A stretch of 64,000 nt of DNA, taken from assembly GCA_040954595.2 (NCBI GenBank), contig CM082580.2:5136783-5200782 (forward strand), in the 5' to 3' direction. The notes under the pieces were generated by a model that was not told the DNA's origin, did not search any database, and saw nothing but the letters and a program-made list of their open reading frames with translations. The translations under genes were made by a program, and so were the position numbers. Below are positions 1,401-50,261 of this stretch, piece by piece; the first letter of the stretch is position 1, and each line of letters opens with the position of its first letter. Source of the DNA: Balanoglossus misakiensis. Taxonomy: Eukaryota; Animalia; Hemichordata.

Positions 1401-1436
<36 letters not shown>

Positions 1437-8570: not shown

Positions 8571-8636
8571 CTAGAGGCACAACTTGACCATAGAAAACAA
8601 TAGATTTGGACCAAACCATAGTGGTGAAGGGGATAA
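8571..8636. mobile_element. Partial, reverse copy of the same MITE in the BCL9 3' UTR
   Basis: CCATAGAAAACAATAGATTTGGACCAAACCATAGTGGTGAAGGGGATAA matches the family core. Confidence 0.6.
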
Positions 8637-9910: not shown

Positions 9911-12900
9911 CTACCTGCCCATGTTCGGCATCACTGGGTTTTGCGGGCCGTACGGCGACATTTGGAAATTTGGAAACTGTCCCTGCTGAAGCATGGGCAT
10001 AGGAGTCTGTGATTGTTGCAGTTGCTGGGGCTGCCCAACAAAGCCAGGACCACTGGGGGGTCCCGGCATTCTAGTCCTCACAAACCCCGGCTGTGTAGCC
10101 TTGGGGGGATAGTACATTGTCACTGATTGGCTGGAGTTTGGCATTAAGTGTCTCTGGTGCGCCATGGCCTCCGATTGGCTCATTCGCAGACCCTGCATTC
10201 CTGGGTAGGGGTAGTTCTGATTCACGCCCATGTTGGGATTGACCATGTGCATCTCGGCGGGCATCCCGCCTCCGCCTCCCATTGGCATCTGCTGCCTCTG
10301 CCTGACTGCGATGTTGGGGCTCATTCCGAGCATGCTGGGATTCATGTTGGGGTTCTGCATGCCGGTGTACCTGGGGTTGGGCAGCATCTGCTGCATTTGC
10401 TGCAGGTGAGAGAGCTGCGTCTGCTGCGGTGGTGGTGGGGGTGCCTGTTGCTGTTGGGGCAGCATGGGCGGCTGCTGTTGTTGCTGCTGCTGCTGCTGCT
10501 GCAGCTGCTGCGACACCCCGGCTCCCGGCGGGGCGCCACCCATGTTCGGGTTGGGAAAATACTGCAGAGTCTGTTTTGGTCCTTTGCCGTCCGGCAGCAG
10601 CGGCGGGTCAAAGCCCAGCATGGGGTTGGAGCTCGTCGGGTTCTGTGACTGGGAATAGTGGAGGGTGCTCGACTGCGACATCATGCCGGAGCTTGGTGGG
10701 TTTCCGCGGCTGAGGGGCACGGGTGGCATATTACTTCCCTGTTGTTGTTGTTGCTGTTGTTGCTGCTGCGCTTGTTGCTGCGCTTGCTGTTGTTGCAGTT
10801 GTGCTTGCTGCTGCGCTTGCTGTTGTGCTTGCTGTTGTGAATAAATCTGACTCGAAACGGTAGATGTTCCAGCCAAACTACTCTGCGAGGTCGCGCCGGC
10901 TTGCTGAACATACATATACGTCGAAGTTCCCGACATCATCGGCTGTTGCCTCGATGCCGGCGTCTGCACCATCATCTGGGGACTCTGCGACGGGGGAATG
11001 GGCTGGGAACCCTGCATCATCAGCATCTGCTGTGGACTCTGCATTGGCGGCATGCGCTGGTGCTGCGTCGGTCCTGCAACTCGCATGTTCATACCTGGCT
11101 GGCCGGGATTGGCCAGGCTCGTGGGCGGCCTGAGGGGACTGCCCATGTTGCCGTCTAGGTACGCCAGAGGCTTGCTCATGGAGTTTCCTTGGGGAGGCAT
11201 TCCGCTGCCGGGCAACGGCGGCATGTTTGGAGGAGGCTGCGGCTGTGTGGGTTGCTGCGGCTGAGACTGTGGCGGTGCCGGCTGCGGAGGATGGCTCAAC
11301 GGCGACGGCTGGGGCGGCGCGCTGGATGCCGGCGGCGTGAAATGCTGCAGTTTCTGAGACGCCGCCCCCGCGCTGCCCGCCTTCTCGACAGTCGGCTTCT
11401 GATAGAACGTCGACGCGTACTGGTGAAAGTCCTCGCCCCTGGGGGGAAAGTTCGGCGCTTTGTCGCGGTTCAGAGCGCTCGGGGGGAAGTTGACCAAATG
11501 CCTGTTGGATGAGGACATCTCTTCGGAGACTTTCGGGGCCACCGTGACGGCTGCTGCAGTCGCTGCAGCCGCCGACACAGCCGCGGCTGCAGCCGACGCG
11601 GCCGCCGCAGTGACGGCCGCCGGCTGTTGGGGATTGCTGAGCGGCGGCGGCTTGGTGGTCATCGGCATTATGGGACTCTGTTCCCCGACGGACTTGGACG
11701 AGGAAGACATCATCGGACTGCTGACGTTGGTGGGTCCTGAGGTAGCTGCGGAGGACGCGGGCGACGGCTTGGGTCCCATCTCGGGAAACATGCCCTGCGT
11801 CGGAGGAGTAGGCACTGACGGCTTGGCGCTCGTCTTGTTGCTGAACATCCTCTGCGCCGCCGGGGGCACAGACGGCGGCAACGGCTGCGAGACCTGCTCG
11901 ACGGGAAACGGCCTGCCGGGCTTTTCCATTCCCGCCGGCGGCAGACTATGCCTCACGGCGGACATCGGCGGATTGTTCGAGTTCACCGCCGCGGGCTGTC
12001 CGCTCGGATATGGCGTGACTTGCGACGGCATCCTCGGAGGCACTGACGAATTCGGCCCCGCGACTCCCGCCGGGACCGCTTGGGAAGGCAGGGAGCCCGT
12101 GCTGGCCGGTCTGGGCGACGACTGGGCTGGAGGGGGCCAGTGCGCGGGTGACTTGGGCAGATGCGGCGAGGTGGGCGACGGCATGGGTCCTGACAAGCTG
12201 CTCCGCCTCTGAGCTGGGTTGTGGGTGAGGTGAGGTGCATAGTACGGAGGTGGGGGCATGCGCTGGCTCTGCATCTGTTGGGGGTTCATCGAGGCGTTCA
12301 CGGGCATATCTCCTGGCCCTCCTGGCATCATGCCACCTGGCACTGGAGGACCACCTGGGACTTGACCGCTCAGGACTTGACCGCCTGGCATTGGACCGCC
12401 TTGACCGCCTGGCATTGGACCGCCTTGACCGCCGGGCATTGGACCGCCTTGACCGCCGGGCATTGGACCGCCTTGACCGCCTGGCATTGGACCGCCTTGA
12501 CCGCCCGGCATTGGACCGCCTTGACCGCCCGGCATTGGACCGCCTGGCATTGGCCCACCTGGGATCGGACCACCTGGGCCCGGACCACCTGGACCGACCA
12601 TGACTCCAGCCATCTGCTGTTGCTGCTGCATGTGGTGTCGAATTTGTTCCTGCTGGATGTGCCTCCTCTTGTTGCTGTAGAACTCCTGCTGCAGCCGGTT
12701 CCACTCCTGCTGCGCCTGGACTCGGTCCATCGGCGGCGGCGAGTGGGGCCCGCCGGCCGAGAGCTGCGGGGGCCCCACATTCTGCGGCGACATCATCGGC
12801 CCCTGCGGCGATCGCACCATATCCGGTTGGCCGTGCGGGGACATCATCCCGGGCATGTACTGGGCCGGCCCGCCGGGCATTGTACTCATGTTCACGGAAG

Positions 12901-12961
12901 CCTGAGGTGGGACAACGTTCAGCGGTGAGGCCATTCCCATATTGTTGCCGCCGGGAAAGTT

Positions 12962-12998
<37 letters not shown>

Positions 12999-13833
12999 GG
13001 AAACAGCAGCCTTTGCATTTCCTGTAAAGTTTGCAACCTTTCTTTCCTGTGCCTCAGCTGTTCAGGTGTCGGGTTGTCAATTGTCTTTATGGGCGCTTGG
13101 GAAGGTCCGTGCGGTTGGGTCGGAGAGAAAGGCTGTTGAACTTGCTGCATGTCCATATTTACGCCGTGCGGTGGCATTCCTCTCGGTGGCTGCGGTTGCC
13201 CGGAAAACCCCATCCCTGCCTGCAAATATTCCTGTTGTGAGGGAAACTGGGGCCTTTCGCCCGGTCCCATCTGCATACTCCTTTGCATCTGCTGAAACTG
13301 TTGCTGTTGTTGTTGTTGCTGCTGCTGTTGTGGGGACAACTGCCATGACAGTTTATTATTGCTCATCGGAGATTCCCACAGAGCGGTTGGGTCGAGATTT
13401 TCAGTCTCTAAAGAGTCCCGTTTGGCCATCGGACTATCCATAGGCATTTGAGGTGACAGGTATTGCTGTTCCAAGGGCTGCTGCTGTTGCGGCTGGGGCT
13501 GAGGCTGCAACGGTTGCTGCAACCTCTGCTGAAGTTGAGAGATTGCTCCGCCTTGCATCATGGCTGCCTGCGACGGCTGCTGCTGCTGCTTCTGTTGGTG
13601 CTGCGACGGCATCATGTGCTGGCTGCCCACGGGTGGCTGCTGCTGTTGTTGTTGTTGTTGTTGCTGCTGCTGGGGCATCTGTTGGGACTGCTGCTGTGCC
13701 ATGGGTGATCCGAGCTGCTGCATGTGTCGCTGCTGTTGCTGCTGCAGTTTCTGTTTCTGCGCCGGACCCTGCTGCGGCTGGTGCTGGTAGTGGTGCACAG
13801 TCTGGGAGCTTCCTTGAAGCTGTGGGTTTGGCC

Positions 13834-13873
<40 letters not shown>

Positions 13874-14161
13874 AGGTGTGAGCGGCTGCTGCAGCTGCTG
13901 TTGGTTCGGCTGCTGGTCCTGCTGGTGGTTCTGAAACATCTGGTGCTGCTTGCTCTGAAACTGTTTCTGGTGCTGCAGCTGTTTCTGTTGGTACGACTGC
14001 TGTTGTCGGAGCTGTTGCTGCTGCTGCTGTTGTTGTTGGTGATGATGGAGTTGCTGCGTTTCCACAACCGGATGCGGAGACATAGTCTGCATCTGTAGTT
14101 TGTCTTGCACAAGTGGTGACTGGGAATTTTCCATTGTCAAAGATGGCCGCCGTGTAATTTC
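9911..14161 (-). CDS. BCL9: BCL9 large terminal exon (HD2, HD3, Q/P/G-rich low-complexity region)
   Basis: Part of the 1433-aa ORF, acceptor AG at 14163-14162. HD2 (beta-catenin binding) PTPEQLRHRKERLQTLQEMQRLLFPE at about 13075-12995; HD3 QEWNRLQQEFYSNKRR at about 12710-12660; MPPPPYY; C-terminal KQTLQYFP. Confidence 0.93.
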
Positions 14162-17100
14162 CTGAAAAATACAAACAGTATATTGTCTTGAAAAACTACC
14201 CACACATTTCACAAAATATATGTCTAGTCCAAACTACCAAAATTTACAGAATTTCATGTTTGTGTCTACAAGCACATATGCGCAGGCACACTCACAAACA
14301 CACATTAAAAATCTCTTGACTTACCGAAGGTCTACTTACATTGTCAACTGGTAAGTACTTCCGTTTAGCTGCTTGACTTCGATGAAACGAGATAATCGAA
14401 TCAGTTTGCCCTGAGAGAACGGCTTCTGCAGCCCTGTTGGCTAGCGACGTGGAGAAGACAAACACTTGCTGCTGCTGCTGCTGCACAGACATTGTCGGCA
14501 CAATGGAAGTTGCTGGCAACAGCCTCGGACTGGGTTCCAGAACTGGTGAGAGAAGAGCGAGTGTTTTAGCTTAACGTAGAAGATGAACGTGGAACTATCT
14601 GGCTGTTTAAAATGTTGAAATTTTGAAAGCCTATAAATATTTTCTGTGTATTAAAAGTTCAAGACTATGATTTTTTTCTGAAAATCTGTCCCCAAGGCAC
14701 ATACTTCCTTAAAGACCAGCAAGATTGTCTGTCTTTTATTCATACCTTTTGTGTCGTTGACTTCCAATTTCTTTGGTTTGTCATCGTCAACATCAGAGCA
14801 CCATTCGGAATCATCCTTTTTCTTGTTCTGCCGAGCAACCACGCATTTCCTCTTCACCCTCGATAAGGGTTTTCCCTTCTCGTCTAAAACGGCAAAACAT
14901 GCAGGTGCAAAGTCAGCCATGTTTGACATGATATTGTTGCCATAGAAACCATATTTTATTACACAAAAACGTGAAAAAGTTGGTCCTTGTCATCCCAAAT
15001 GGCAAAAAGGCAAGTCAGCCATGTTTGACATGCTGTTATTGCCATAGTAACTAATATAAAAAATATGTGAAAAGGTTTGATATTCATGACAAATTGTGAC
15101 GTCAACTGCTGTCAGTGCTATTTCTGCCATTTTTTATGGTCTCCATTGTTCCTGTCATCGTCAGTGACCACAACATTTCTGCAAATTTCACAAGATCACA
15201 CCCATGGGAAGTCATCTTTGCAGCGTGTTGCCAGATTAAGCGATCGCTGGCAGGCACAGATGTTAAATACATATCAGGCAGTGCATCCTCACAGCCAATG
15301 AAAAGGAACATTGTTTCTCTCTGTTTATCCTTCACCTTTCAAATTACACAAGTAATGTTGATTACATTTTATTGCCATTTTTCATTTCATACGGATTTGC
15401 GATGTAAAGAAACGGCCCTACTGAGTCTGTATCTGTGTATGCCTGTTAGATTTTCAATGTAAGAAAAAATAAGTGGTTCTTGTGAATTTGAAAAAATGCT
15501 AAGCAATGAATCTGGATCTGGTGTTACTTTCATCCTTTCAAATCAACCAGGCATTTGCACAAAATGGATGTTATTAAACATTTCACGATAATCCACGCAA
15601 CATCTGTGTTATCTGCACGACCCAACAGCTAGCGTAGTGAGCAAACACTACGTGTTAAACAGATGGAGCAGTCAAATATACTGGGATTTTTTATAATGTC
15701 ACAAATATTCCCTCCGTACTGGCCACAGGCACTCGTGTCATTATGGCCTTTGTTTCACCTGCGGAACTGTTCAAAGTTGGCGCGGTCAGAATCACGTGTG
15801 CCTGTGGTTCTCGCTCGGCTGTAGCATTGTATAAAACAGTAACATATCTGCCTGGATGGCCCAGTGTACAACCTTCATTCTTCCACACACATCAGACAGA
15901 TTTCACTTCTCTGGCTACATACAGATACATGTACGTAAAATGTACTCTGTTTAACTGTCAGCTAATTGCATGGGTATACAGCAACATGCTTAGCAGATTA
16001 TGTAAATAATATCACCTTTTGCTTGCTATCATCACAATAATTATTCATAAATTGCTACAATAACAACAACACCTGCCAAGTACACACTGAGATATACTAT
16101 GATGAATTTTGGATGGCTACAAGACCATAAAACCACTGGCAGGGTGGATCCAGAATGAGATCGTCTGCTTCTCGCTTACCTTTGTAACTTTCACTATCGC
16201 TGTCGTACCCCAACTCCACGTCCGAAAAGTTTCCCCTGTCGTCTTTTTTCTTCCGTTTCTTCCGGACATTATCATCAATGTCCTTGCCCTCCTCGGGGCC
16301 GTTCACGTTAAAAATGTCCCCTCCGTTCACGCTCAGTTCGCTCTTGAAGAGTCCGCCGTTGGCGTGGAACGCTTCTGTTTCTCGCGACAAAATCATGGCT
16401 TCTTCCTCGTCAAAGTCAAATGGATTTGATTCGTTGAGAATGGCCTCTTCATTCTGTTAAGATGGGGGGAAAAAACAGTCACATTTGACATCCTGTACCA
16501 CGGAAACTCCAACATTTCCACAAACACTGAGGAACCATCAGTTGATTCTGAAAGAAATCTATAAATGGCCGCTATACTTTTCACTGATTGCAAAGCATGC
16601 AATGTCAGAAATTATGTCTGCCTCTCAAAATGAACGCACACTGGAAAATGGAAAATGTTTCCATTCCTTCATTATTTACAAAAATCAAAAGAAACCAAAA
16701 TGCATTTCCTTAATTCAAAAACACCTTAAATTTGGCTTTTAAAGCTCTAGGGCATTTCCTAAAGGAACACCTTTAAAATCTCAACAAGCCCCCCCCCCCC
16801 CCCCCCCCCACACACACACACAAAAAAAAAAAAAAAACACCAGTCAGGAAATTTTAGTCTTCAATTGTGTTGTCCACTTCTATTTTCAGATCAAGATTCC
16901 TCCTGAGAGCCTACGCAATCGATTTGAACATTCGCAATAACAATCCAGCTATTTTTAACATTACAGCAGCTACCAAAACAGCATTTTATTTTGTGATAAT
17001 AACAGGTAACATCATCCTGAAAGGCATCTTGGGTAAAATATCAACTCCTGGTTGGTGTGTTTTTGCATCAATCACAACAGGTTGAGCATGTCAGCTTTTT

Positions 17101-20100
17101 ATGTGTATGAAAGTTTGTAGAATTATTTCTTGCTCTGTTTGCGGAATAAAGTTCTCAATTCCTTGATTGGACTTTGTCTAGCCTCATCATATTGGTAGTA
17201 AAATAAATCTCATTTTTAGATAGGTTAAAATGGACAAGTACATGGACTGTAATTTTCACTTTTATTCATGCTTAAAATGGCCTTTGGACAGTTTCAACGT
17301 GAAGCGAATCTCACCTCCTCTTCCATTATTCTGAGCCTTTCAACTTCTTCTCTTTCTTTTGCCTGAAAATACGAGTGCAAAATTATATTTTACAGCAAGT
17401 GAAATCACACCCAATCTTCACAGGTGGAAACACAGCGATGAAAGGGTTAAAGATCAACGCACATGAAAAAAATCGTCACAGCCCCTCTCTGTACCTACCT
17501 CCAGTTGGCCTTCCACTAAAGGCCATAAAGCATTCTGTATATAATCGAACAACTCCCTTTCCTGTGGGTGGGACGTTTTACGATACTGCTTCAAGAAACA
17601 CTGCCAGTCTTCCAGAGACGCACAGACACACTCCCACGTCCTCTTGTTGGCCTTTTTCGTCGGTCCTTCTCTGTACAGCCTCAAATCTGAACAAGAAAAA
17701 CAGATACACACATGCTCCTAGTTTACAAACACATTTCATCCTCGATTCACCGATCACAAAAATCAGTTTTGACCAGTGATAAACAATTGCCATCAGGCAA
17801 AATGTTAGTAAAATTTATAAAATTCTAAAACAATTATTCCCTCAGGCATAGTTCTCTGTGAAATTCACCTCTCTTACATACACTTCACTTAATTATGACC
17901 TTTGACATAATGAATCTACATATCCTTTGATATGCAAATTTACCAGTCTGCAGAGTTAGTATACCAAACGACTCTAAACTTACCATCAAAATACCAATAT
18001 GAGTTGTTCACTGCATCCTGCCCCAGAAGGGTTGCTCGCTGGCAAAAAAATGGAGAAATATGAATTATGTACAGGAAATTTTTTAAAGTAATATTTCTCA
18101 TCAAACATCCATAAAATCCAATTAATCACACATTTCCAGAAAGCTGAGTATTTTACTGTGGTTATAAGTTCACTCACTCAAGCCCCATCATTGATTATAT
18201 TTTTTGCCTCAAACCTTAATATTTGGCATTGGGGAAAAATAACATTGAGAGTTGACATGATATCCCCTTGCTAAAATAAATATCTCATTTGGAGAAGGAG
18301 CTCACATAGAAAAAAATATGGACTGGTCAACTAAATGAACATGTATTTTGGAAGGATTAGGCTTAGATGGTGGGATGCATTTTTCAGCCAGAAATGTTTG
18401 TGTGGTGTCAGTGGGAGACAGCCAAATTATCCAAAAGTGAGAAAATTGGCTGAAATTGCCATTCTAAAGTGTATCATGCCACCATTTGCATAAAATAAAT
18501 ATATTCATCTGTCTTTGAATAAAATTGTGAACATAAAACATATAATTATTTGATCAGGTAATAATCTGTGCGTTGGTTTGGTGATCCTGTTAAAGCCATC
18601 TGTTGCATGTGTGCACATACATGGGTTAGCTAAATAAATAAACTTCTGTAGACCTGTGGGTGTACAGGGAAGTACATGTATCTGTAACAATCACCTAACA
18701 GTTGTTGAATTTATGAAAGTGATTTTCTCTCATTTCTCAGAAGATCTGCTTTGTTGCGAAATACTGAATTACTTTTTTGGCCTACGGCTGAAATTCTCTA
18801 ATGACAACAGGTACAACACTAGGGACAAAAATAATTGTAAGGATATATTTTCTATTGAATTTTCTATGAATTCAGACGTAGACTTTTTTCTTTCATCATT
18901 TTCATTTTTCCCCACAGACTGACCCACTTTGGTGAATGATATGCCCAATAGCGAAACCTGCAACTGTTTGGTTTACAAGTTACGTGTTCAGATTACAACG
19001 GTCTTTTCGTCACAGTCTTGCTGACACAGGCAGAACATGTTTGGAACAGAGAGGTTTCAGCTTCCAGTACATTTACCAGTAATCAGTGTTTGGTTCTTGA
19101 CACATGGTGGAATCACACCCACTCATTTTCCAGGCTTGCTATTATAACAACAATATTTCCTCATCTATTTCTTGTTCAACACAATCAGGGCACTTACCAT
19201 ATCATCTGCATCAAAATAATCATTTAAATATTCTGCTAACTCTTCATCTTTTTCTTCGTGAACTACATCTACAACTGATTTAAGTAGTATTAACTGTAAG
19301 AAGTGAAAAAAATCGAGATTTCTGTTATGGTGGAATGCACCTGAAAAATCAACGTCTTAAAGTTTTTGAAAAGCAACTTCAACCCTTTCACCGCTATGGT
19401 CCAGTCCAAATCAATCATTTTCTATGGAAAGGTTGGACCTGTAAAGAGGGAACTGGGGGTGAAAGGATTAAAGCCTTGCCAGGTGTTACTTGAATTTTAG
19501 AATTCTACTTTCAAACTCAGATTGGTCCATCGCACTGATGGGTAAAAACACAAACGTCATTTGACGATGCAACTTTATGCTGGAATTACAATATGACAAG
19601 TTTGATTCACATCATGCATCTTCAGAGTTCCGAACCCTGATTTACAGAACACCCTCAATCACACCGTGGGAAAAACCACAAGTGCCCACAGACACAAAAG
19701 AGCAAATGGCTAGCCAACTTGAAAAAAGTGTGTGATTTGGTTTGCCATGTGGCACACTCTGCACATTCCAAATCAAATAAGATATTAATGCGGTGTCTCT
19801 CCCTGTGTCAATAATGACGACTGCAAAATGATGAAATCACTGCACAATTTGTGTCATCAAGTGCCCACAGATCAAGTCTGGTTGGCTTACGCGCTTCCTA
19901 AACTTCACACTTTCCTGACAAAACACACAAATTGCCCATTTTCCTTAAAATAGTAGACACTTTTTGTAATGTTACAATTTTATCTCATAGACAAGTCGCA
20001 ACCAGGTCATCAACCTTTAACTACCACAATTTCCACCAAACTATCCCCACATAATATATTATAATCATCAGCATAACGATATTACGTTTTTATTGAAATT

Positions 20101-23100
20101 ACAGCATTGGAAATGAGAAGGGGGAGTGGGAAGGGGGAGGGGGGTAGTGGGAGGGACAAGGTGGCAAAAGAAAGTCTTACCTTATTTTCTGGAGACAAAT
20201 TTTTGAATAAGCCGCCTTCTCCAAAGGAATTACAGGGGATCCCTCTGCCTTTTAATAACCTACTGACATGCTCCTCCCAGTTTGTAAGTCTGAAAAATAA
20301 AAATAAACAACATCCATTTAAAGCCCCAGTATTTCTCGTGTGCATCCATTTTTCATCATCGAAAAAAGCCCGTTTTCCCAGTACATCCATCATGGAATAC
20401 TATATAATGAAGATGTAAGAAAGGTTTGGGCAATTGTAGCTACATGCAAGCCGAAAATATCGCCCGTAACACTTGAAATGATGCGCGGGTTTGTTTACAA
20501 CGGAAGTGTTGTACATGTCGATCAGCAAACGTGCCACTTTGACATTTTGATGGTCAGACCATTTTCGGATTTGATCTGGTTCCATCGACTGATTTCTCCC
20601 ATAAAGTTATCTTCCCAAAATTTCGCCGAATTAGTGCGCATTTCTTCGTTGAGTCGCTTGATTTGGGGCGACCAAACCTCTTCCGCATAGATTCACATTT
20701 GAGTGCGCATGCGCACTAGTCACGTGTGTCAACATTAGCCTGACTCACGTGACTTTCTGTCCGGACAGAAAGTCATTCTTCACTCGTTATATTGTAAATT
20801 GTATGAGTTTATCAGCAGAGCTGGGGATGATGACTGTTCGATTCAGTATCAATTATCATATACTTTTAGAAATTATAGATGCCGTTTCAAACAAAATTTT
20901 GCCCCTACGAGAAATACTGTGGCTTTAACATTTGCGAGCTGGAAACATTTTTTGCAAGCAGATGTTTCTTACAGGCTGAAAACAAACATCAAGTTTATTA
21001 GTTTCAGTTCTGCGATTATAAAGCACATTATCGTTACAATCTTGCTTTCTACATTATAGGTATACTTGGTATTACAGTGTTCACAGACTATATTCCCACT
21101 GCAGGGCATGTGGCCACAAAAAAAAGAACTTATCGGTGTATGGGGCTTGTACGGATAACATGAACTTCTTGAAAATTTTCCCAACCTCAAAGCTGTCACA
21201 TAGTAAGTATATAAGATGCAAAACGTGGATATGATAGGATTTGAGTCGAGTATTTTCTGTTTGAAAATATGGGGATAAACTGTTTAGTCACCTCTTTACA
21301 AGGGTCACTGGAGGTCAAAGATCTGTCACGGTACACAACAAACACTGGGTGCTTTTTTCATGAACAGAGCGTGTTTGAGTGGTGCGTAAATGGCTGCCCG
21401 GAGGTTAGCCCTGTACAAGCTGCATTTACAGTTACAAAAATTTGCAAATCCTGAGGGCGAAAGTCCAACCCTGGCTGCATGTGTACATTTGAACCCCCCC
21501 CCCCCCCAGCAATAGCCATGTCACCTACACACTGCACCAGCTACACACACACACAATACATGCAGATTTTCAAATTAACAGGTATTGGCTCAGTCATTGA
21601 GTCCCACTTTTCTCTGTCCACTTAACCATCTAACAAGGCAATAATTGTAGAAACAGTGGCAACCTTGGTTTAAATACCCAATTATTAAGAAACGACAACT
21701 CATCGTGGCGAGGGGACGATCAGAACACGAAGCAGAACACCAGGCCTGGCCATCTGAAGTGCGGCGGGCGACACAGTCAATTTGACACACTTCACGCCAC
21801 AAACCAACACATGTATTATTCATAATCTCAACGTGGTGACTGGCCGACCTCTTCACTCTCCTGAGATCTGCTGTGGTCGGTTGATCCAGCCCCATTGACA
21901 AGACAATTTACACCCATTCGTTTAAATTTCTGCACACTTCCAGCGTTCTTAACCGCAGAAAATCTCTTACAGCATCCACTCTCATCGGACACACGTGTGA
22001 GAATAATTAAAAAAAACGCCCAGCGCTATCATCCATGAAACAGGTACAGCCATTCTCATCTCAGCAGGGGCCCATTATCACACTTCAGGCATCAGATCTT
22101 ACTCATATTCACAAGCTCGACTTCAATACTTGGCTTTGGATGACTGTACAGACACAATGACAAGACTTTTCCCCCTTCATCCATTTGAGAGAGAAAAATC
22201 TTCATCTGCAGCAAGAGTACTAGAAATCTTGTTACTTAACGACAAGACGCTGCCACTGAAATGCGAACTTCTCGCCTCCATTTTGGCTCTGACTGCATCT
22301 GACAGTTTGAGTGATAACTCGGCCACTGTAAATTAGATTCCGATCGATTAAAATGCTAAATACACACACATCTGACATTTTATATCTACACGCAAATTAG
22401 AATTTCATTTCAGTACCAAGCCGACAGATCTGACACCCGCTTCCACAACTTTATTAGCAAGATATAATATTTAATGCTCCAAAATAATTCACTTATTACA
22501 TTAATCACAGCTTGGATACAAATGTCTACACTGACCCTATCTTTTCAAGATTTCACTTATAAAACCTTTAAACAGTACACATCTGTAGTTCACTAATAAA
22601 TTAAACTATTATATATAGCATTGATATTTTGCTAATCCAAAATTGAATTACATTTTAAGGTTATTAACATGATCATCATGAAATGGCAGTTTCTACTTTA
22701 AGAATTTTTAAATGGCATAATTTCTTTAATTATTCCTTGAGCGCTATTTAACATCTATATGAAAGATCTTAGATGTCACTGAACTGAGAATACGTTCTTT
22801 TGCTGTCAACACTGAGTGACTCACGCAGTATTACCGTGGAAACGTCGACTGGAACACAACAATCAGCGCAGATAATGACCCTGAGTTGTACAATAATTAC
22901 ACTCCACTAATAAAACTGCAACACAAGGTCTCACAGATTTTATACCATGACTTGACAGAACACAATACCTACCACAGATCAGATCACACAGAAGTTTTAT
23001 ACTATGAACAAAATATTTCGGTACGAGTTTATTTACTGCAATATAAGGAAACTGAAACACTTTCTTGTCAATTTTAGGATTTGGGAGTCACTGTTGCCAG

Positions 23101-26100
23101 GCGCTTAAATACATCCGAGAATTTTAACGTCTTGTTAAAATTTTTCTTCCTTTCTTGCGATTGCAGTATTTTTTGTGCCGAACACTCGTGGGAGACAGAA
23201 CAGAGCAAACATAGGGGTGCCCTCGTGACCGGGCTCATCCTGAAGGACTGTCCAAAAAACGCTGAAGTGTTTACGTGTCAGATGCTGACAGGACCGCTAA
23301 ACTGTCGCTTGGACACGCCATTGTTTCCCCCGGCGACTGACGGAGAAGTCGCGCGGTCAGTGTCCAATGAACCCCAGGCTGGGGCAGCTCTATTTATAGG
23401 ACTTACATATATGTGCCTTGATATTACACACATCACATGCCCAGCATACAAGATCCACTCTGGGGGTCATTGACCTTGAACAGTCTGTTCTATTTCAGAC
23501 AAATTTTTCTGCTTGGACGCAACATAACAGGATCCCTGCACCAACAGTGAACAGTTACAGCAAACCCACCCACAATTACTCAAAAACGAGATTCTCTGAA
23601 AAATAGTTGACAGTAACCATAGCAACACATGAATACATCCTGTGATGTTTTTACAAGCATTTACCACTGGCTCATCATAGCTACTTTTTGTCAAGGATGA
23701 ATAATAAATAAGTTTCCATCAAAATTGAAAATTTCAAGAACACAAAATGTCAGAAAATATGTCGCCGGCCAGTGAAATATTTTTTCCAGTTTACAAATTA
23801 AGCCCAGATTCTTTCTGGTTCTCTGATATTCTTTATAATACAAAATTATTTGGAAAGAGTAACGTCAGACAATTTTTCATATATTGTATTTCAAGTTCTA
23901 CAAACCTGCAAGATGTCAAGAGATGTGATTCACGCTGTCATGATACATGTACCACTTAGTAACCAGTGTTATGATTGGTTGATAATACCCAAGCCAGCAT
24001 ATCCTGACTGCCTTGGCCAATCACTGCCCACACGAAAAACTACCGGATTGTCATTCATGTCTAAAGTTGGAGTACCCTCTTATCTATAAGTGCCCTAATG
24101 AGATGCAAATTGACTTATTGCAGGCTAATAAATCTGCTTTTCAAACAACCGCATCCACATTTTGATAGTGAATATTTTCCACAAGGGCAAAAAAATCACC
24201 ACAACAATACAAACACGTTCTTCAATGTAATTAGACGTATTTTACTGCCAATGAGGTCAAACAGCAAAGTATTTCCTTGTTACCATAGAAACAGAAGCAA
24301 TAAATTCTCCCATTTCAACACAATTTTCTGTGACCGCACTTCCACTTGATGTCTGTACCCCATTACTCCTGTAAACGACACAAAGCTAATTTTTCACGAT
24401 ATCCGCCCGCAGCATTTTATTTTTCTTTGAATTATTTAAAATCAGACACAGCAACTGCGACGAAACCGCAACGTGTACTCAGGACTTGTGTATTACGACA
24501 ACTACCTGGCAGAGTGATGTACAACACACACATCACAAATGGTTTCTTAAAAGATGACCTTTCAGAAACACTTAAGAGATGATCTCTCTCTTGCACAATG
24601 AACAGACTCCTTTCAGGAAAATCTGATCACGACCGACTCAGCTGGTACCATTTTTTGTAAACACAGAGCAGGACGTCGTACGTAGAAATACGCAGCCCCT
24701 CTGAATCATTACAGAATGATGAAAAGACAGCTCTCTCTTTGATATCAGAGGTCAATGTCTTCTGCGTGATTATCCAAGAGTGATGGTTTTCATGGTATTG
24801 AAAATACCTGATAACAGTATATTATATTCCCTTACTTACTTCAAACTGCAACAATACTCTCTTTCTCAGAACAGCTACTGTACACACACACACAGTTTCA
24901 TATTTTAACCCTTTCACCCCCATTTTAGTCTAGTATCTAGCCGTGTATGCCCATTTTGACGGCTAGATACTAGACTACCCCCATTTCCCTTATAGAGGTC
25001 CAATTTTACCATAGAAAACAATGGATTTGGACCAAACCATTACGGTGAAAGGGTTAAACAACAACACCACTGGTGGGATTTACATGTACCGGTAACTACT
25101 TTTGTTAATGTAATAATCGTAGCATAGTAACAACTGGATGCAAAAAAACTGAGAAAAGCAAACATCACTGTCAAATAAATCAGTTTAGGCTGACAAAAGT
25201 TAGATCAGTCCAGCCACAAACAGAAGCCAACCACCAAAGACATTGAAATTAATTGCTGGCTGGCAATATCTGGCATCCCCAATGCTGATGCACAGAATTC
25301 AATCCATTTCAATCTCAGACCTGTCAACGAGTTCCAGCCCTCGCCGTTTCCCGTACGTCTATATTTATACAGGCATTCATTTAATCTCGGCTTTCAAAAA
25401 GATGATGTTTGCTTTGATGACAGCCACTAAAAATACTTAACTCTCTCTCTCTCTCTTTCTCAACTCAGAGTGACCCCATGATGTCAGTACACACGGTCTT
25501 GACAAAACTTCTGTGCAAAATATCGTGTTTGCTTTTCACGTTTGGATTTCATTCCTCGGTTATTGAGAAGTTCCCATCTTTTCAGAGGAGAACACGTTGA
25601 TTGAAAATTGGTTTGTTTGTATTTGAGGAAAGATGGGCGGGTGTGTTTGATGTGTACATGTACAGGGATAGGGAAATGGTGGCCGACAGTGAGAAAAACT
25701 GCCATCACTTATATTTTGGAAACCATTATCAATATTTCACATGTCGTCCTACAGAATAATTTATGAGAATTATCTTGAGCTCTGGAAATATCACAAGGGC
25801 GATTAGCTAAATGTCATTTATCTTTTTCACCTTGAAGTTTCTATGACTAACCATTAGTCAGTGAGTTCTTTTTTGTTTATATCTTTCACCTTATGTCACT
25901 TATTCATGCTTGAAGCAAATATCAGATGCGCTGGCCAGATCTATGGGGACATTCAAAAGATCAATTATGTCCCCCCCTCCCCCCCCCCCCACACACACAC
26001 CATCTCTAACCAAGTGAGAAGTAGTTACTAACATTTCAGCCAGGAAAACGAGGTTAACCCTTTCACCTGCCACCAATGGTTTGGTCCAAACCCATTACTT

Positions 26101-29100
26101 TCTATGGTACGTTTGGACCTCTAAAGAGGAAACTGGGGGTGAAAGGGTTAATTCCCAGTGACAGTGGACTTCAAGTTCAACAGTAAAATGCCATCTGATC
26201 TGATTGATCCCTTGAACCTCGTGAGAGATCGCACACAGAGGTCCAATTCTGGTATCGGGCCATTTTCTTCGTCGCTAAATTTTCCACGGAAAACTCAACA
26301 GTTCTGACTTGAAACTGGATCAGGATGACATACAACTGCCATGTTTTATTTAACCGGCCCACTGCAACAGTGTCAAGTAATACACTGAGCCTAATATCGG
26401 AACAACATGGCTACCTGACACCCGATCAGTTCAGTTATCAATACATCATAACTTCTATTATATCACCACCACTAAAAATAAATGTGCATTGATCCAATGA
26501 AGAGACACACACTGCTTCACACTTCGATTTCGTTCAGATGAAGAGTGGACTGATTAATTAAACACAACCGATCGCAACTTATTTCTCAACGACATCTGAT
26601 GAGAAAACAAGTCCAACCGACTGGCCTCCTTCACCCAGAAAACGAGAGAAGAACTTGGTCATGTCCACAACACGGAGATCAATTTGCGGTGATGTGTTAA
26701 TATGCGGAGAGGAGACGACACTTTCCCCAGATAGGTGCAGAGTTTATTTCACTGAACTCATTATCACCGGAGCTTGAACAAATACCTCTCCATTGCAGCA
26801 ATGCAGAGTAGACTCAATCAAACCGATCCCCAATCAATTTAATTAAACCACACTATTCACCTGTGTATTAGAATGATGAGTGCTGTCACGGTTGCGGGTG
26901 GGGGGGGGGGGGACTACATGTACCTGCACAGTAATGATTTCGTTATCATTTGACATGCTTTTTTTCGACCGGCTGTGCAAATACCAGTGAACTGAGAGGC
27001 ATTCATTATTTACACCTTTCCTACCAAATTCACAGAACTGCCACACACACAAACAAACACCAATATCACAGGCGAAGACCTCAAGGCCCAAGTATTACAT
27101 CACTTTCCATTGTGAAATAAAATATGAAGGAAGACTAGTCTATTGCCACTAAATCTAGAAATGCGTTTTCTAATATTTCTCCTGTTCACACTTCCACCAC
27201 TACCACACTGTTGTTATACCTTGCTATAAACTTTCAACACAATGGCAACAAAAATGATATTCTGTAATTGACAATGTTTATTTCTTCTATTCTAGCCTCT
27301 TAAATTTATTAACTGATATACTATCAAGCAGGGTTATTGCTAACTAGTTATTTTAATTTTTATTATAACTGTCACTGGCAGATGAATGATTCCACTGCTA
27401 GTGCTAGTCATTATAGCAAGTCAGTTCTATTAATTGAATACACATCACAAATATTAGATGAGAAAATACATTTAAAGGAGACTTAATTTCATTTGCACAA
27501 TTAAACATTCAGAACTGTGTAAGAAATCTAGTTATTGGAAACTGCTGCTGGCAAAAGTAATTTGTCTCTTTTTGCAACAGATATTGCTGAAGTGCTGCAC
27601 GTCACTGAGATGTGCCTCAGAAAATTGTAATCCAGGACTTCTTGACGATTAAAAATTCAGTTCTCCACAGAATCCTGTGAGATTATAACAATCAGAAAGC
27701 TTTGGTTGCTGTGGTAACGGGTATCCACTACACTTGGTAGATTAGTAATTGGAAAAGACAATGCACAAAGCTTGAGGATTTGTTTCAAGTAAGAATTCTT
27801 GTAAGCAAGAGGGGGTTTTGAAACTTGGGTGATCGTAGTTCACTACAAATGTACACCTGAATCATGGGATTGACCAAGTTGAAGATTCTGCACAGGTGTC
27901 TGTATGTGTATCTGTGTCAGTATGACAGTATACATTTCTAGACAGGATTAATAACCTACATGTATTGTTTATGCATATTTATGCTATTTAACTATTAAGA
28001 CAAGGCTGCGGTTAAATTGGGTAACCCTAGGTGGCCTTGGGTTAGCCCAGAACTGACCCACTTTGAAATCTGACATCACTACAAGCACATTATTAGCACA
28101 TTATCAACCCAAACATCATTAACATAGCTGTGTTTTGCAAAATCCATTTTTGCAACCACTATACATTTCAACCACACAAAATGCATTTTCACAGAAAAAA
28201 TTACTCTCGGTAAATTCACTGATATTCTGAAAAAAACGTCATCACAAGAGGAAGAAGTCATTTCCTTTTACCTAAAGGGCATTCTCTATCAGATCGCTGA
28301 TGGTTACGAACTGAAACACCTTTCTAAATGGCATCATATGCAGAACGATGAAATATGTACATCACATTTTCTTAATACCTCAAACATAAAAATAAATTCG
28401 AACCTGTATTACTATTATGTAGTTAAAATTGTACCTCTGGAGTGAGTGATGACGCGGACGTAAACAATGAAATGATTAATCATTCCGATAGGCTTGCATC
28501 AAGCTTTTCATATTTCACCCTGGCGGTGACCAAGTAAATCACTTGATAATATTTCAGATCTTTGTATTCTCAAAAAAAAAGTTGTTGTTTTTTTCACACA
28601 TATACAACAATCATTGACAGAAAATTAAAACCCCCAAAAATCGCATCACTAAATTTTTTCTAAATTTTTGTTGTGATGTGGCAAAAGGGCATAATTCATC
28701 GACGTGATACATTTACCCGAATTATGACATTAAAAAAATCACACGGTAGATAAATAATATAATTGTGTGACAGCTGGTAATTGTGCCAAAAGTTACAGAC
28801 GACACCAGATAACATGTGGCAAGTGCAGGCACACAAGACGGCGTTTTTTTTCATTCAACCAACCGTGTGGTTACAGAACAAAACGATATGAGCAGCTATT
28901 AACTTACTAGGTCCCTCGGGGATGTGCGGCGCTGCCGAGACCACAATGGGGCAGAGAGTGGCGTTGACTCCGTATAGGCAGAATGTGTGCCTTGATTCTT
29001 TACTGTTATATTTCACCCTCAGTTGAACCCCCTAACGAGGTGACCCCCCCCCCCCAGGGGGACAGGTGGTGTGAAACGCAAGAGGTGGCTCACATCACAG

Positions 29101-35100: not shown

Positions 35101-38100
35101 TAATTACACACATGAAAAAGATATGATTGGGAAAAGACTGCACTGGCGCGTTAGTTTATAATTCATGGTTGTGAATCAGAAAAGGCAAGGTATGCATATA
35201 CATAGTGACATCACACACATGTTCCATGTATAAACCCCTTACCTCAATATGAAATAATGGAAACTTCCCAATGTAGCTAGTTTCTGAGATCATGTTTCCC
35301 CCCACTAACTTCATACAACTTTTTAAACAAACAAAATCAGAGGGGATTTTGCCTCAAAGGTTCAACTGCATTTTCAAGATTTCGTCAACGATCACAAGAA
35401 GCTCCAATATTTCCAATTCTATGTCTGTCTAAATCTTCCAAGTCGTTGTGTGACAGTCTGTACTTTCCCCTAATCATCACAAGGCAAACTACAAGTACAA
35501 GGTACTTCCGATACAGATAAGGTGAGAAAAAGCCATCCATATTTCATCTGTAAAGTTTTTTTGTACACCGTAGTCCGACTTTCTATTTTGATTCCAGCAG
35601 GGCCCATTACACATCTTATCATTTCACATCACACTTTTTATCAGCATAATCATCTTTGTACATATGTTTACCTTCAGACAATTCTACCAAAATATTTTTT
35701 TGTAAGTCAGATAAGTAGCAAGCACCAAACAGTTTCTCTGCAAAAGTAGGTCACCATCATTTACATGATACTGCGATCACCGGGCGTCTGAACGCGAAAC
35801 ATATTCTGGCAGTGAACTATACGTTCATCCATCCTTCTTAACCGCGTTGTCAACAACAACCACTCCAATAAACCCATGCGCAGGTCATTTCCACACCATG
35901 CGAGGTTATCACGGCGCTCTTTGCATAAAAATTACATTCCATCACTCAAATTGCCCAGGTATTCAATCATACTTGTACCTCTGCTGTCATCCCCCTTTAA
36001 TAAACCACTTCAACCGGTATTAATGAACCGCCGATATACTTTCTCTCTTACTGATTTCGGCAAAAACCAACATGTATTAAGCAATATACCATGGCATCAA
36101 TTATGAAATGGTAGTTTGTTTTAACCCCTGACTGCATCAATTTATAAAATCACCACCATAGAGAGAGTAAGAGAAGCATAGGTGAACTGAAGTCCACAGT
36201 CTGCCCTCTAACAAACAATTTTTAAAACTGTCTGGGTCAGCCCTATACCTCTGCATGTAGTGTGGAAAATTTTCTGGAGTCACCAGTAAGTTTGTTGAGT
36301 CAGTGGGCTTAGAGGGCACACTGACAGTCTACTGGACAATACTGTAGTCTGTACTTCAAAAAAATGTTCTTGACAGTTTTGTAGTTTTTAAACTTTTTCC
36401 ATGGGGGAGAGGGTCCCCTGCTACATTACAATCAACAAACAAAGATGATCAGGGGATCAGATGCAGGTACTAAGCAAACTATCAATGATGTGGCAACATT
36501 ATGCTATTAATTAATCTTGTACAAGAAATCTATCAGATCTAGGCAAATTTAGCCAATTAACGTCACAGTTCTTCAAATACCATCTAATCATCAGAGGGAT
36601 GTTTGGGATTCCCCTCATTAACTGATCAAGCCATATTACTTTTGAAAACGTTAATACTTCAAAGTTTAATCGTTGACCATGGATATGGGTCGATTCAATT
36701 CAGACACTTGCATATATATTTGAAAAATTAATTATATATTTTATAAAAAATCTAAATTATACGTTCATCGTCAACCTGCTTGGAGAAAAAAAGGTGTTGC
36801 CCCCCCCCCTTTCTAATTTAAATTTTAAGATTTCTCATATTGCAATTACACTTTCAATGTTCACAAATAATATGAGAAAGTTAGACCCTTCAAAGTTACG
36901 GTTTTCTTTGAAGGTCATTTCTGAAATCGTATGATGACAATGCAAGGCAGGTTACACACCATCTGAAAATACAGGGCTGCTTGGTTACTATAATTTTAGT
37001 CAATGTCACTTATTTGCCAGAGACAAGGTTGTACACACTCTCATGGTCTTTCTTCGACACGACGCTTAGATAAAACCGTTGTCTGCCGTTTCTGTACGTC
37101 CGGGGATGCGATTATTGATTTAATTCAGCTTTTTGTTGTCACACCCATGGTGTACTAATTTTAAGGGACCACCTCTGTCTCAATGCAGGCATTGACGTCT
37201 GCCCCGAACAAAAAGTCTGTCAAGGTCGGCGCTGACATTACTTTTGACGTTAAAATCCGCTACGAGCTTCCCCCCGAACAAAGTTGAACGCGTCCGCCCC
37301 ACTGCTTTGTGGCGACGAGACCGACAAATTCTGGGGTGTAGCTCGTCTGAAATTCACATTTGTCTCCCGCTTGTTTTGTTTTTGTGCCAGTTTTCATGTG
37401 TCATTGGTCAGCGATTGTCCCACAATCAAAATAAGCCCTGCCAATATGGCATCCTATTATTAGTTTGTATACACTTCACTCCACTGAAACCACACACACA
37501 CACACACAGACCTTCGATCAAAATCCGGCTCTGATTTAGTTTTTTAAAAAGGTTGAAGCCCTTTCACTGGCAGTGCCTTCACGTGATGGATGTGGCCCAA
37601 AACGACAAACCCAGGGCAAGTGCATGTCTGGTGCCCTTTGTCCAAAAAGAGCGGGTCTGAGACACACACAAAACTACAGTTTTCTTGGCCGGGAACCAAT
37701 TCTGGATAGAGATGTACACTACACTGGCTCAACGTGCACACACGTTATATTCCATTTGACTGAAGTCCAAATTAGCAAACACTGATGAGGGTTCAGGTCG
37801 TACAGGTAGAAATCCTACCCACGTCTCACAAGGATATTAAAGAAGAAACCTTGAAAATTACTCACAGAATATCCGCCGAGTGACAAACAAATCGCATCAA
37901 TTTCGTGAAGGTGTCTGCCAAAAGGGCACTGTTTTCTTCGCATAACTCGATTTCAAAATCCTGCGGGAGGGAAAAACGGGAGAAAGATACGGTGACTCGG
38001 GGTCCTGCCTCAGGTAGCCGGTGGGAATGGGCACATTTCTGGTGTCCAGGAAGAGTGACACACCCGGTAGGAATCACGGAAAAATATGAATAATAACGGT

Positions 38101-38816
38101 GTGTTCCAATGCGTGGGACACAGTGACGTGTTTTGAGTGTGTATACACACACAGCGTATTATCCCTCCGACAATCAACAATGTAGCGATGTCCGTTTCAA
38201 GTGATCGACAGCGGTCCAAATGCGTAAAAACACCCCTTCTCGCACCTTGGAAGCCCTACGAACGCCGCCCAAACGTCGTTTGGGGAGCCTTCGCCACCGC
38301 CAGAGTGCGATCGGGAGTCGGTTTGGGTTAGAATCTGGGCGACAAACGGCCAAAATTCCTATAGATCTCGACGGACGTACCTCTATAGCCACCTTGCTGA
38401 AGTCAAACTTCCCCCTGAACAAACGCAGAAACTGAAACACGTACGCTAGTTCCCACATGCATCGTAGCGACTCCACCGGCTTCGTTTCTGTCGTAACGGA
38501 GCAAAAATAATACGTTATCAATATTCTACAGTGGCCTGTTGATAAATATTTAATCTGTTTGGCGACGAGCGGCAGTGTGGTGGGGCCATGAAAATGAGGC
38601 TACTACTACAAGTCAGACTCTAGAGCTGCCCGTTTGAACTCCATGTTTTATGCAGGAAATGTATGCACATGTAACGCATAAACACAAGCGGGTGTCCGGT
38701 CACACAACTTCGCTAACTTCTCGCAGATCGCCCAGAAAGTAATGAAACGCACACCGACCTAAAGTGCAGAAAACCAAGATTCCCTTGTTACCTGTGTTTG
38801 GTTTCTTGCGTGGCAT
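9911..38816 (-). CDS. BCL9: BCL9/BCL9L/Legless-like Wnt coactivator with an N-terminal DDT-WHIM1-WHIM2/3 (CECR2-like) module; 12 coding exons, about 1862 aa
   Basis: complement(join(38816-38792,38487-38381,37960-37866,20289-20181,19293-19198,18038-17984,17686-17499,17362-17315,16453-16180,14883-14746,14542-14340,14161-9911)) = 5589 nt. All junctions GT-AG, all phases compatible, no internal stop. BCL9 identity is strong; the joining of the two halves is predicted from sequence only. Confidence 0.8.
12377..12544 (-). repeat. Coding minisatellite, 7 x 24 bp, encoding (GGPMPGGQ)7 in BCL9
   Basis: Unit ttgaccgcc(t/g/c)ggcattggaccgcc repeated seven times almost perfectly. Confidence 0.95.
14340..14542 (-). 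CDS. BCL9: BCL9 HD1 (Pygopus-binding) exon
   Basis: VFVFSTSLANRAAEAVLSGQTDSIISFH closely matches recalled human HD1 VYVFSTEMANKAAEAVLKGQVETIVSFH; acceptor AG, donor GTAAGT. Confidence 0.93.
14746..14883 (-). CDS. BCL9: BCL9L-like basic/acidic pre-HD1 exon
   Basis: RVKRKCVVARQNKKKDDSEWCSDVDDDKP resembles recalled BCL9L KRRCVLERKQPYSGDEWCSGPDSEEDDKP; phase 1/1. Confidence 0.85.
14910..15051. repeat. Short intronic direct repeat of about 40 bp, each copy ending in an X-box-like motif
   Basis: AAGTCAGCCATGTTTGACATG exact at 14910-14930 and 15012-15032, followed by GTTGCCATAGAAAC and ATTGCCATAGTAAC. Confidence 0.75.
16180..16453 (-). CDS. Linker exon with NLS-like RKKRKKK
   Basis: NEEAILNESNPFDFDEEEAMILSRE...VRKKRKKKDDRGNFSDVELGYDSDSESYK; phase 0 in, phase 1 out, donor G|GTAAGC. 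Confidence 0.8.
17315..17362 (-). CDS. 48-nt charged helical exon after WHIM3
   Basis: ttttcAG|AKEREEVERLRIMEEE|GTGAG, phase 0/0. Confidence 0.75.
17499..17686 (-). CDS. WHIM2/WHIM3 exon
   Basis: DLRLYREGP...TWECVCASLEDWQCFLKQYRKTSHPQERELFDYIQNALWPLVEGQLE, matching the CECR2-type W..lc.t.eeW....e.f....s..ErqLy..l...lP pattern. Confidence 0.85.
17984..18038 (-). CDS. WHIM2 (GxD...YWYF) exon
   Basis: RATLLGQDAVNNSYWYFD, the R..plG.D..g..YWyF motif; AG acceptor, G|GTAAGT donor. Too short to appear in the ORF track. Confidence 0.88.
19198..19293 (-). CDS. WHIM1 exon
   Basis: LILLKSVVDVVHEEKDEELAEYLNDYFDADDM; 96 nt, phase 0/0, donor ATG|GTAAGT. Confidence 0.82.
19379..19471. mobile_element. piggyBac-like MITE, diverged copy
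   Basis: tcAACCCTTTCACC...GGGGGTGAAAGGATTAA with the family core. Confidence 0.7.
20181..20289 (-). CDS. DDT-to-WHIM1 exon
   Basis: LTNWEEHVSRLLKGRGIPCNSFGEGGLFKNLSPENK; phase-2 acceptor matches the phase-2 donor at 37865; donor AAG|GTAAGA. Confidence 0.82.
20702..20775. promoter_or_regulatory. Intronic promoter-like motif cluster (NRF1, E-boxes, AP-1, 26-bp palindrome)
   Basis: AGTGCGCATGCGCACT 20702-20717, CACGTG 20721-20726, TGACTCA 20741-20747 overlapping TCACGTGA 20745-20752, perfect palindrome 20750-20775; locally CpG-rich. Confidence 0.6.
24905..25057. mobile_element. piggyBac-like MITE (reverse copy) carrying a nested insertion
   Basis: TTAACCCTTTCACC...GGTGAAAGGGTTAA perfect TIRs, interrupted by the element at 24926-24977. 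Confidence 0.8.
24926..24977. mobile_element. 52-bp foldback element with 19-bp TIRs and a 9-bp TSD
   Basis: TAGTCTAGTATCTAGCCGT...ACGGCTAGATACTAGACTA, flanked by CCCCCATTT at 24917-24925 and 24978-24986. Confidence 0.85.
26054..26151. mobile_element. piggyBac-like MITE, full copy
   Basis: TTAACCCTTTCACC...GGTGAAAGGGTTAA with the family core. Confidence 0.8.
29314..29495. mobile_element. Tc1/mariner superfamily (Tc2/pogo-like) MITE
   Basis: TA|CCGTTAAAGTCACTTTATAAGACGCA ... TGCGTCTTATAAAATGACTTTAACGG|TA: 26-bp TIR with 1 mismatch and TA TSD; internal direct repeat GGTATTATAAGTCGCACCCC twice. Confidence 0.8.
37866..37960 (-). CDS. DDT domain exon, second half
   Basis: DFEIELCEENSALLADTFTKLMRFVCHSADI; pyrimidine tract plus CAG acceptor, donor GTGAGT. 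Confidence 0.82.
38381..38487 (-). CDS. DDT domain exon, first half
   Basis: TKPVESLRCMWELAYVFQFLRLFRGKFDFSKVAIE, compare recalled CECR2 ELRSWWEVPAIAHFCSLFRTAFRLPDFEIE; donor GAG|GTACGT. Confidence 0.85.
38792..38816 (-). CDS. First coding exon MPRKKPNT(E)
   Basis: caagATG context, donor CAG|GTAACA, phase 1 matches the next exon, lies in a CpG-rich promoter-like region. Confidence 0.7.
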
Positions 38817-38908
38817 CTTGAGGATGTTTGTTGGGGTCAAATATCACTATCCCTCTAGTGTTGGCGCCATTCCTGTACAGACATTCACACACAAGGTCAG
38901 CGAAAGAG

Positions 38909-38918
38909 GTCACGTGAC
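38909..38918. promoter_or_regulatory. GTCACGTGAC (CLEAR/USF-type E-box) in the divergent DDT-BCL9 / LC3 intergenic region
   Basis: Perfect 10-bp palindrome about 90 bp upstream of the ATG at 38816; a second GTCACGTGA at 39754-39762. Confidence 0.5.
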
Positions 38919-40494: not shown

Positions 40495-40495
40495 T

Positions 40496-40535
<40 letters not shown>
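40495..40535. repeat. (GA)n(GACA)n microsatellite
   Basis: Read directly from the sequence. Confidence 0.9.
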
Positions 40536-40536
<1 letters not shown>

Positions 40537-41659: not shown

Positions 41660-42941
<1,282 letters not shown>

Positions 42942-50174: not shown

Positions 50175-50261
50175 CTGGAAAACACCAGGTTAAAAAAGAA
50201 AGCCTGACTGTGAAAGATATCATAAGATGGCATATCGAAAAGAAAACGTAGAAGGAATAGC

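Follow-up and report, generated by a model that had tools for sequence, protein, structure and literature searches.

A predicted BCL9/Legless gene of Balanoglossus misakiensis whose N-terminal DDT-WHIM module also occurs in corals and in bilaterians of several phyla

The BCL9/Legless locus and its exons

The window analysed here is a 64,000-nt stretch of the genome of the hemichordate Balanoglossus misakiensis (assembly GCA_040954595.2, contig CM082580.2, positions 5,136,783 to 5,200,782 of the forward strand). Its minus strand carries a gene of the BCL9/Legless family of Wnt coactivators. The 12 exons of this gene are confirmed to form one frame, which is predicted to encode an N-terminal DDT-WHIM module followed by the homology domains HD1, HD2 and HD3. 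The protein thus belongs to a known family, apparently with an undescribed ancestral architecture; both parts are known, and their combination and its age were not found in print. No published fusion of BCL9 with DDT or WHIM was found in the literature search, whose one match for BCL9 together with CECR2 and ISWI was a breast-cancer review; subscription papers for the most part, the InterPro architecture pages and the 2012 work of Aravind and Iyer, who reportedly defined the WHIM motifs, lay outside that search.

The exons lie where the original prediction had placed them (Table 1). Joined, they comprise 5589 nt and encode 1862 aa with a single terminal stop; all 11 introns are GT–AG with compatible phases. 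Splice sites were ranked with rough generic, untrained weights against 2142 local GT and 1927 local AG sites. By this ranking ten of the 11 donors fall within the top 1.4% and ten of the 11 acceptors within the top 1.9%. The weakest sites are the donor of intron 3 (top 8.2%) and the acceptor of intron 9 (top 4.0%). Intron 3, which follows exon 3, is 17,576 nt long. A short basic N-terminus like that encoded by exon 1 also opens the proteins of relatives.

Table 1. Predicted features of the window (positions within the window)
Feature	Position	Strand	Content
Exon 1 (coding part)	38792..38816	-	Start codon, aa 1-8
Exon 2	38381..38487	-	First half of DDT, aa 9-44; found in the window by tblastn with a coral protein (E 1e-5)
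Exon 3	37866..37960	-	Second half of DDT, aa 45-76; gapless against coral proteins in the joined model
Exon 4	20181..20289	-	DDT-WHIM1 linker and start of WHIM1, aa 76-112
Exon 5	19198..19293	-	WHIM1 helix and next helix, aa 113-144
Exon 6	17984..18038	-	WHIM2 with GxD signature (G150-Q-D152) and aromatic strand
Exon 7	17499..17686	-	End of WHIM2 and WHIM3 (strands, two helices), aa 163-225
Exon 8	17315..17362	-	Short charged helix, aa 226-241
Exon 9	16180..16453	-	Acidic/basic linker, aa 242-333
Exon 10	14746..14883	-	Basic/Cys/Trp motif common to coral proteins
Exon 11	14340..14542	-	Contains HD1
HD1 (exon 11)	~14465-14379	-	Pygo-PHD-binding, aa 405-433
Exon 12	9911..14161	-	Q/P-rich; stop at 9911
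HD2 (exon 12)	~13078-12995	-
HD3 (exon 12)	~12727-12662	-
PPPY (exon 12)	12253-12242	-
LQYFP (exon 12)	10570-10553	-
Tandem repeat (exon 12)	12328-12569		24-nt unit encoding a Gly/Pro/Met/Gln octapeptide, ~8 copies, core 96-99% identical
CpG-undepleted region around exon 1	37900..42000		Likely promoter
CpG-undepleted patch in intron 3	20300-21000		Just upstream of exon 4
Kinesin-2 gene, 3' part	131-3600	+	Convergent with the BCL9 gene
Glycosyl hydrolase family 18 gene	45800-49200	-	Upstream of the BCL9 gene, same strand
Dispersed element, ~95 nt	726-820, 8567-8636, 19377-19471, 24978-25058, 26057-26151	both	TTAA-flanked inverted ends
CpG-undepleted region, 14 kb	50000-64000		Likely unmethylated intergenic or upstream DNA

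The DDT-WHIM module and the BCL9 motifs

The presence of DDT and WHIM1–3 in the first eight exons is borne out by an end-to-end alignment with CECR2 and with a fungal protein that matches WHIM1 and WSD. When Pfam was searched exon by exon, none of nine pieces matched DDT, WHIM, WSD or BCL9, while the coral orthologue has a DDT above the cut-off (24.9 bits, cut-off 22), in its equivalent of the exon 2 region. Per-exon matches are not to be expected because the domains are cut into exons of 30–60 residues; the DDT and WHIM assignment therefore rests on homology to uninterrupted relatives. A profile built from corals alone matches the joined window model with 175.7 bits and no gaps, and residues 3–220 of the window protein are 38% identical to residues 2–219 of the Oculina protein, also with no gaps. 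The 215-aa module is gapless from corals to chelicerates and can be aligned position by position with CECR2 and the fungal paralogue.

An AlphaFold model of the Oculina module (predicted local distance difference test score, pLDDT, 68.6) folds into a bundle of helices and a sheet of four strands, closed off by further helices. In a VIA-align comparison, Ioc3 of yeast ISW1a (2y9z_B) was the second match (Z 8.7, 209 residues aligned, model residues 4–229, rmsd (root-mean-square deviation) 7.1) and the sole whole-length one among the 50 matches listed. This predicted likeness to Ioc3, which is structural only, is supportive and not decisive. Sequence searches of the PDB with exons 2 and 7 gave no matches, and the module profile found only two weak, unrelated matches there. 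A model of exon 7 alone, the Foldseek search with it and an Atlas search with exon 7 were uninformative; the nearest ESM Atlas clusters that have a family are DDT, WHIM1 and WSD, all below 0.9, and serve as leads only.

HD1 and HD2 were both recovered by PDB sequence searches, in which exon 11 matches the solved BCL9 HD1 (E 8e-8) and exon 12 the solved HD2 (E 9e-6). The invariant threonine of HD1 is present; Pfam PF11502 misses HD2 when the whole 1416-aa exon 12 is scanned. HD3 was recognised by motif, with no profile: W933 and F940-Y941 fit the orthologues and the signature given in PMC5352222, an invariant Trp and a Phe/Tyr doublet. The basic/Cys/Trp motif of exon 10 (around EWCS) aligns with coral proteins, and its pattern occurs in none of six named bilaterian proteins tried. 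Word-index protein searches with exons 7 and 11 returned no matches.

The predicted protein is similar to BCL9, BCL9L (B9L) and Drosophila Legless in having HD1, HD2 and HD3 in this order, PPPY and LQYFP motifs and a long Q/P-rich disordered body. Unlike these proteins as studied, it has the 215-aa module in front. With CECR2, a subunit of the CERF complex, it shares an N-terminal DDT-WHIM1-2-3 module, but it lacks the bromodomain and belongs to a separate paralogue in the tree. No CECR2-type bromodomain was found in the exon pieces scanned or in any HD1-bearing relative. The same module is present in fungal DDT-WHIM-PHD proteins (for example Borealophlyctis KAJ3300476.1, Gigaspora KAF0492196.1), where a PHD finger in the chain takes the place of HD1.

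Fused relatives and the age of the architecture

Relatives were found from either side of the fusion. On the BCL9 side, exon 11 led to three metagenome loci, and a 141-aa stretch of one of them, with HD1 and no DDT, was used onward; this query returned 28 proteins among 747 candidates. Fifteen of these are 988–1015 aa long; the named ones belong to Oculina and Pocillopora, with Stylophora, Acropora and Montipora present in the clusters of these proteins. The remaining 13 (509–607 aa) begin no earlier than the HD1 exon, which is the pattern of gene calls limited to one exon. All seven long coral proteins scanned match Pfam DDT with 16.8–24.3 bits, four of them reaching the cut-off. A break point in coral variants coincides with window intron 6, and intron 10 (phase 1) has a counterpart of the same phase in the cnidarian-like metagenome locus L002. 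An assignment of L002 and of locus L003 to sponge DNA was dropped; the relatives returned are stony corals. Database names conflict for one Stylophora gene: UniRef labels it CECR2, and the label of its shorter isoform is BCL9-like. Three coral variants (P0037, P0039 and P0045) start at the exon 7 equivalent, without DDT, WHIM1 and GxD, and represent either real alternative first exons or artefacts of intron retention.

On the module side, a profile of five coral stretches and six window exons found 949 matches (E ≤ 0.001) among 1.84 billion representatives, and the best 150 of these were analysed. HD1 is carried by ten of the 150, eight of them within the top ten ranks: a coral representative, Branchiostoma belcheri, Liolophura sinensis, two clusters of Tachypleus/Limulus, Owenia fusiformis, Tubulanus polymorphus, Nymphon striatum, Chromosphaera perkinsii and one relative of Chromosphaera from ENA. 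Pfam BCL9/HD2 is passed by six of nine HD1-bearing proteins scanned. The domain-architecture survey called for by the original prediction thus shows module and HD1 fused in corals and in several bilaterian groups (amphioxus, a chiton, an annelid, a nemertean and chelicerates), so that the in-frame fusion is real at the level of the family. Bromodomains occur in 44 of the 150 matches, PHD fingers in 50, and none of the three domains in 46, many of which are fragments; no protein has two together, and accordingly none of the 44 bromodomain proteins has HD1.

Taxon names were assigned directly for 19 of the 150 matches, and the taxonomic range is incomplete to that extent. Within this set no BCL9 of an echinoderm, bivalve, gastropod, sea anemone, sponge, insect or vertebrate was recognised; loss, split annotation and clustering would look alike here. 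In human BCL9, HD1 occupies residues 177–205 (PMC2927781), which leaves too little room for the 215-aa module. HD1 lies at 233–266 in B9L and at 321–355 in Legless, where the length leaves room for a module; neither protein was recognised as an HD1-bearing match among the best 150, a result of the general survey with no dedicated sequence test. The module was likely lost in humans and flies. Two further module-bearing proteins from Logan and JGI, P0092 and P0107, lie near the HD1 group and are possible degenerate members: P0107 resembles HD1 faintly in one stretch (3.0 bits), and P0092, which lacks HD1, has a basic/Cys/Trp stretch like that of exon 10.

Two trees agree: a quick one with 144 rows (the window, Oculina and 142 sufficiently covered matches out of the 150) and a careful one with 43 selected rows. 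The window module groups with amphioxus (97/92) within the bilaterians (100/95), and corals are sister to these (99/97); this placement points to a likely non-vertebrate deuterostome. The order within the HD1 group follows animal phylogeny, the animal modules form one clade (99/97), and the bromodomain proteins (100/99) and the PHD proteins (100/98) each form their own group. Since the animal modules are one clade separate from CECR2, the architecture is ancestral and not the result of a recent CECR2 capture. Of the two origins originally considered, an ancestral architecture is therefore upheld by the fused orthologues and the tree, and a lineage-specific fusion is rejected by both. Judged from these sequences, the fusion is evidently inherited by vertical descent from at least the cnidarian–bilaterian ancestor.

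Chromosphaera, an ichthyosporean, may extend the family beyond animals. Its 672-aa protein has the full module and an HD1-like motif that scores 37.2 bits against the animal HD1 profile; the ENA relative reaches 33.2 bits, against 3.0 for the highest-scoring non-member and at most 3.8 in 1000 shuffles. Its four best PDB matches are all HD1 of BCL9 or B9L, although individually weak (E 0.09–0.4). The protein also shares the charged coiled region of the fungal DDT-WHIM-PHD proteins. It has no HD2. In the tree, this protein and its ENA relative fall tentatively with the HD1 group, at a support of only 51/35. The architecture of module and HD1 thus appears to be older than animals, without HD2. 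In the literature search on this point, none of the papers listed mentions Chromosphaera. In corals, HD2 has neither a Pfam BCL9 nor a PDB HD2 match, and its C-terminal half is similar by eye; coral HD2 is, as far as the sequences tell, at most partial, and may be incipient or decayed. The idea that the Pygo PHD split off from the fungal DDT-WHIM-PHD family was rejected: the PHD of the one fungal protein tested matched 27 solved structures, none of them Pygo.

Proposed function, alternatives and neighbourhood

According to the preferred reading, to which a probability of roughly 0.7 is given, a single BCL9/Legless gene keeps a DDT-WHIM module that corals and bilaterians of several phyla have as well; the module likely docks ISWI, and the protein would be the subunit that targets an ISWI remodeller to Wnt enhancers. 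The exon chain, the homology of the module, HD1 and HD2, the common architecture and vertical descent are its established parts, whereas ISWI docking is suggested by Ioc3, Itc1 and ACF1. In predicted ISW2 and ACF complexes, DDT and WHIM1–2 touch the SLIDE domain of ISWI (PMC12093815), and by analogy with these proteins the module would wrap the same domain. HD1 of BCL9 binds the Pygo PHD finger and tunes it allosterically (PMC2927781, PMC4571689). Extrapolated from human and fly work, HD1 would bind this finger, a reader of methylated H3K4, HD3 would bind ChiLS, and HD2 would capture beta-catenin and so switch the protein. HD1 would fill a reader slot, with the histone reader supplied in trans through Pygo; the main hint is that HD1, PHD and bromodomain are mutually exclusive after the module. 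In the nearest paralogues the reader is in the same chain, as a PHD in fungi and a bromodomain in CECR2 and its fly homologue dikar. ISWI would reside at Pygo-marked enhancers before the signal, and nucleosomes would be repositioned upon beta-catenin docking, opening or closing chromatin.

Fly NURF/ISWI has reportedly been linked to Armadillo. In the BioID supplements of PMC5352222, CECR2 is present in the B9L list with counts of 2, 31 and 21 (no Wnt, Wnt and lithium chloride; controls 0) and in the PYGO2 list with 8 and 14; it is absent for BCL9 and is not named in the available main text. These counts give weak support to the ISWI link.

Several observations weigh against the preferred reading. 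Pfam finds nothing on the window's own exons, and the coral WHIM1 (E 0.018, in the exon 4 equivalent) and WSD score under the cut-off. The GxD of WHIM2, present in the window protein, proves little, being dispensable for ISWI binding in Paramecium ICOPs (PMC11789628). The coral model is only moderate in pLDDT; Foldseek returned nothing for it at E ≤ 0.001; and the Z-score of Ioc3 ties with those of calponin-homology domains matching residues 11–137, the helical half. In the BioID files, many other entries rise with Wnt as steeply as CECR2, and SMARCA5, SMARCA1, RSF1, BPTF and BAZ1A occur in none of the three. Human BCL9 functions without an intact module, which makes the module dispensable in some lineages. 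One alternative is a single fused gene whose module no longer binds ISWI and serves in DNA or nucleosome binding, as a scaffold or for another partner, remodelling being left to BAF and separate ISWI complexes. The low WHIM1 and WSD scores, the calponin-like helical half and the missing ATPases all agree with it; moreover, WSD is reported to contact linker DNA (PMC11789628), and ISWI docking of the module is a prediction. This alternative is nevertheless considered unlikely: the module is gapless from corals to chelicerates and aligned with CECR2 and the fungal paralogue, its predicted fold matches Ioc3 over the whole length, and the human BioID baits lack it, so their lists cannot test it.

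Less probable still is a locus that mainly yields separate products, namely a BCL9 driven by an internal promoter and a short DDT-WHIM protein that stops after exon 8 or at 16097, while the fusion is a minor product or is not made. Introns 8 and 9, between the two halves, do contain read-through stops and AATAAA/ATTAAA hexamers, but the density of such hexamers is about that of chance (29 in the 17.6-kb intron 3). Two in-frame ATGs stand directly upstream of exon 10, but inside a 40-nt duplicated element. The weak donor of intron 3 and weak acceptor of intron 9 also favour separate products, as do the CpG-rich patch at 20.3–21.0 kb and the split or shortened models of three other species: the Stylophora isoform X2 and one Limulus paralogue, which begins at the exon 5 equivalent, lack the full module, and a B. 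lanceolatum model has the module only. These models likewise count against the preferred reading. On the other side, the ratio of observed to expected CpG (o/e) is 0.99–1.13 around exon 1, in what is likely the promoter, and falls to 0.2–0.7 in introns 3–11, which resemble a methylated gene body; introns 8 and 9 have 0.32 and 0.52, with no promoter-like patch. This indirect evidence favours a single transcription unit. Many of the long coral fused proteins, about 1000 aa in length, are encoded on Logan contigs of 3.3–5.7 kb; as the gene is interrupted in the genome, these contigs are inferred to represent spliced transcripts. Minor split isoforms are possible, and the patch in intron 3 (o/e about 1.1) may have been inserted recently or may act as an internal promoter for a DDT-less isoform. 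A recent lineage-specific capture of CECR2 5′ exons by BCL9 is highly improbable. The module does resemble that of CECR2, after which UniRef names the Stylophora protein, but it groups with fused orthologues from corals to chelicerates, and forcing it together with 15 bromodomain rows costs 56.6 log-likelihood units and is rejected by the approximately unbiased test (p 3e-5). In the tree, the module lies outside the CECR2/bromodomain group and is evidently a paralogue of the CECR2 module, no piece of CECR2 itself.

BCL9/Legless, as studied in humans, mice and flies, is called a largely unstructured adaptor. If the wider animal form has an ISWI-docking module, these model organisms are derived cases; a nucleosome remodeller would have been hard-wired into the Wnt switch in the cnidarian–bilaterian ancestor, and vertebrates and flies would recruit ISWI to Wnt enhancers via a separate subunit. 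BCL9 likely began as a chromatin-remodeller subunit. The presence of module and HD1 in a unicellular relative, with HD2 absent there and weak in corals, offers a testable origin for a nuclear Wnt component, and the intact form can be assayed in amphioxus, annelids, chelicerates and corals. A tentative scenario, rated a little below even odds, goes further: BCL9 would have begun before animals as an ISWI accessory subunit whose own PHD was swapped for HD1; HD2 would have been added on co-option by Wnt, and the ISWI arm would have been dropped separately by vertebrates and by flies. On this view an old, targeted nucleosome-sliding machine, intact in most invertebrates, would form the core of the Wnt enhanceosome.

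Rfam gave no matches. The neighbouring genes were recognised by single exons, the kinesin-2 gene against KIF3B (E 2e-5) and the glycosyl hydrolase gene, presumably chitobiase-like, by PF00704 (E 1.6e-5). In the last 14 kb the CpG o/e is 1.08, and none of the four open reading frames scanned there has a Pfam match. The dispersed element occurs in either orientation and resembles a short, non-autonomous DNA transposon.

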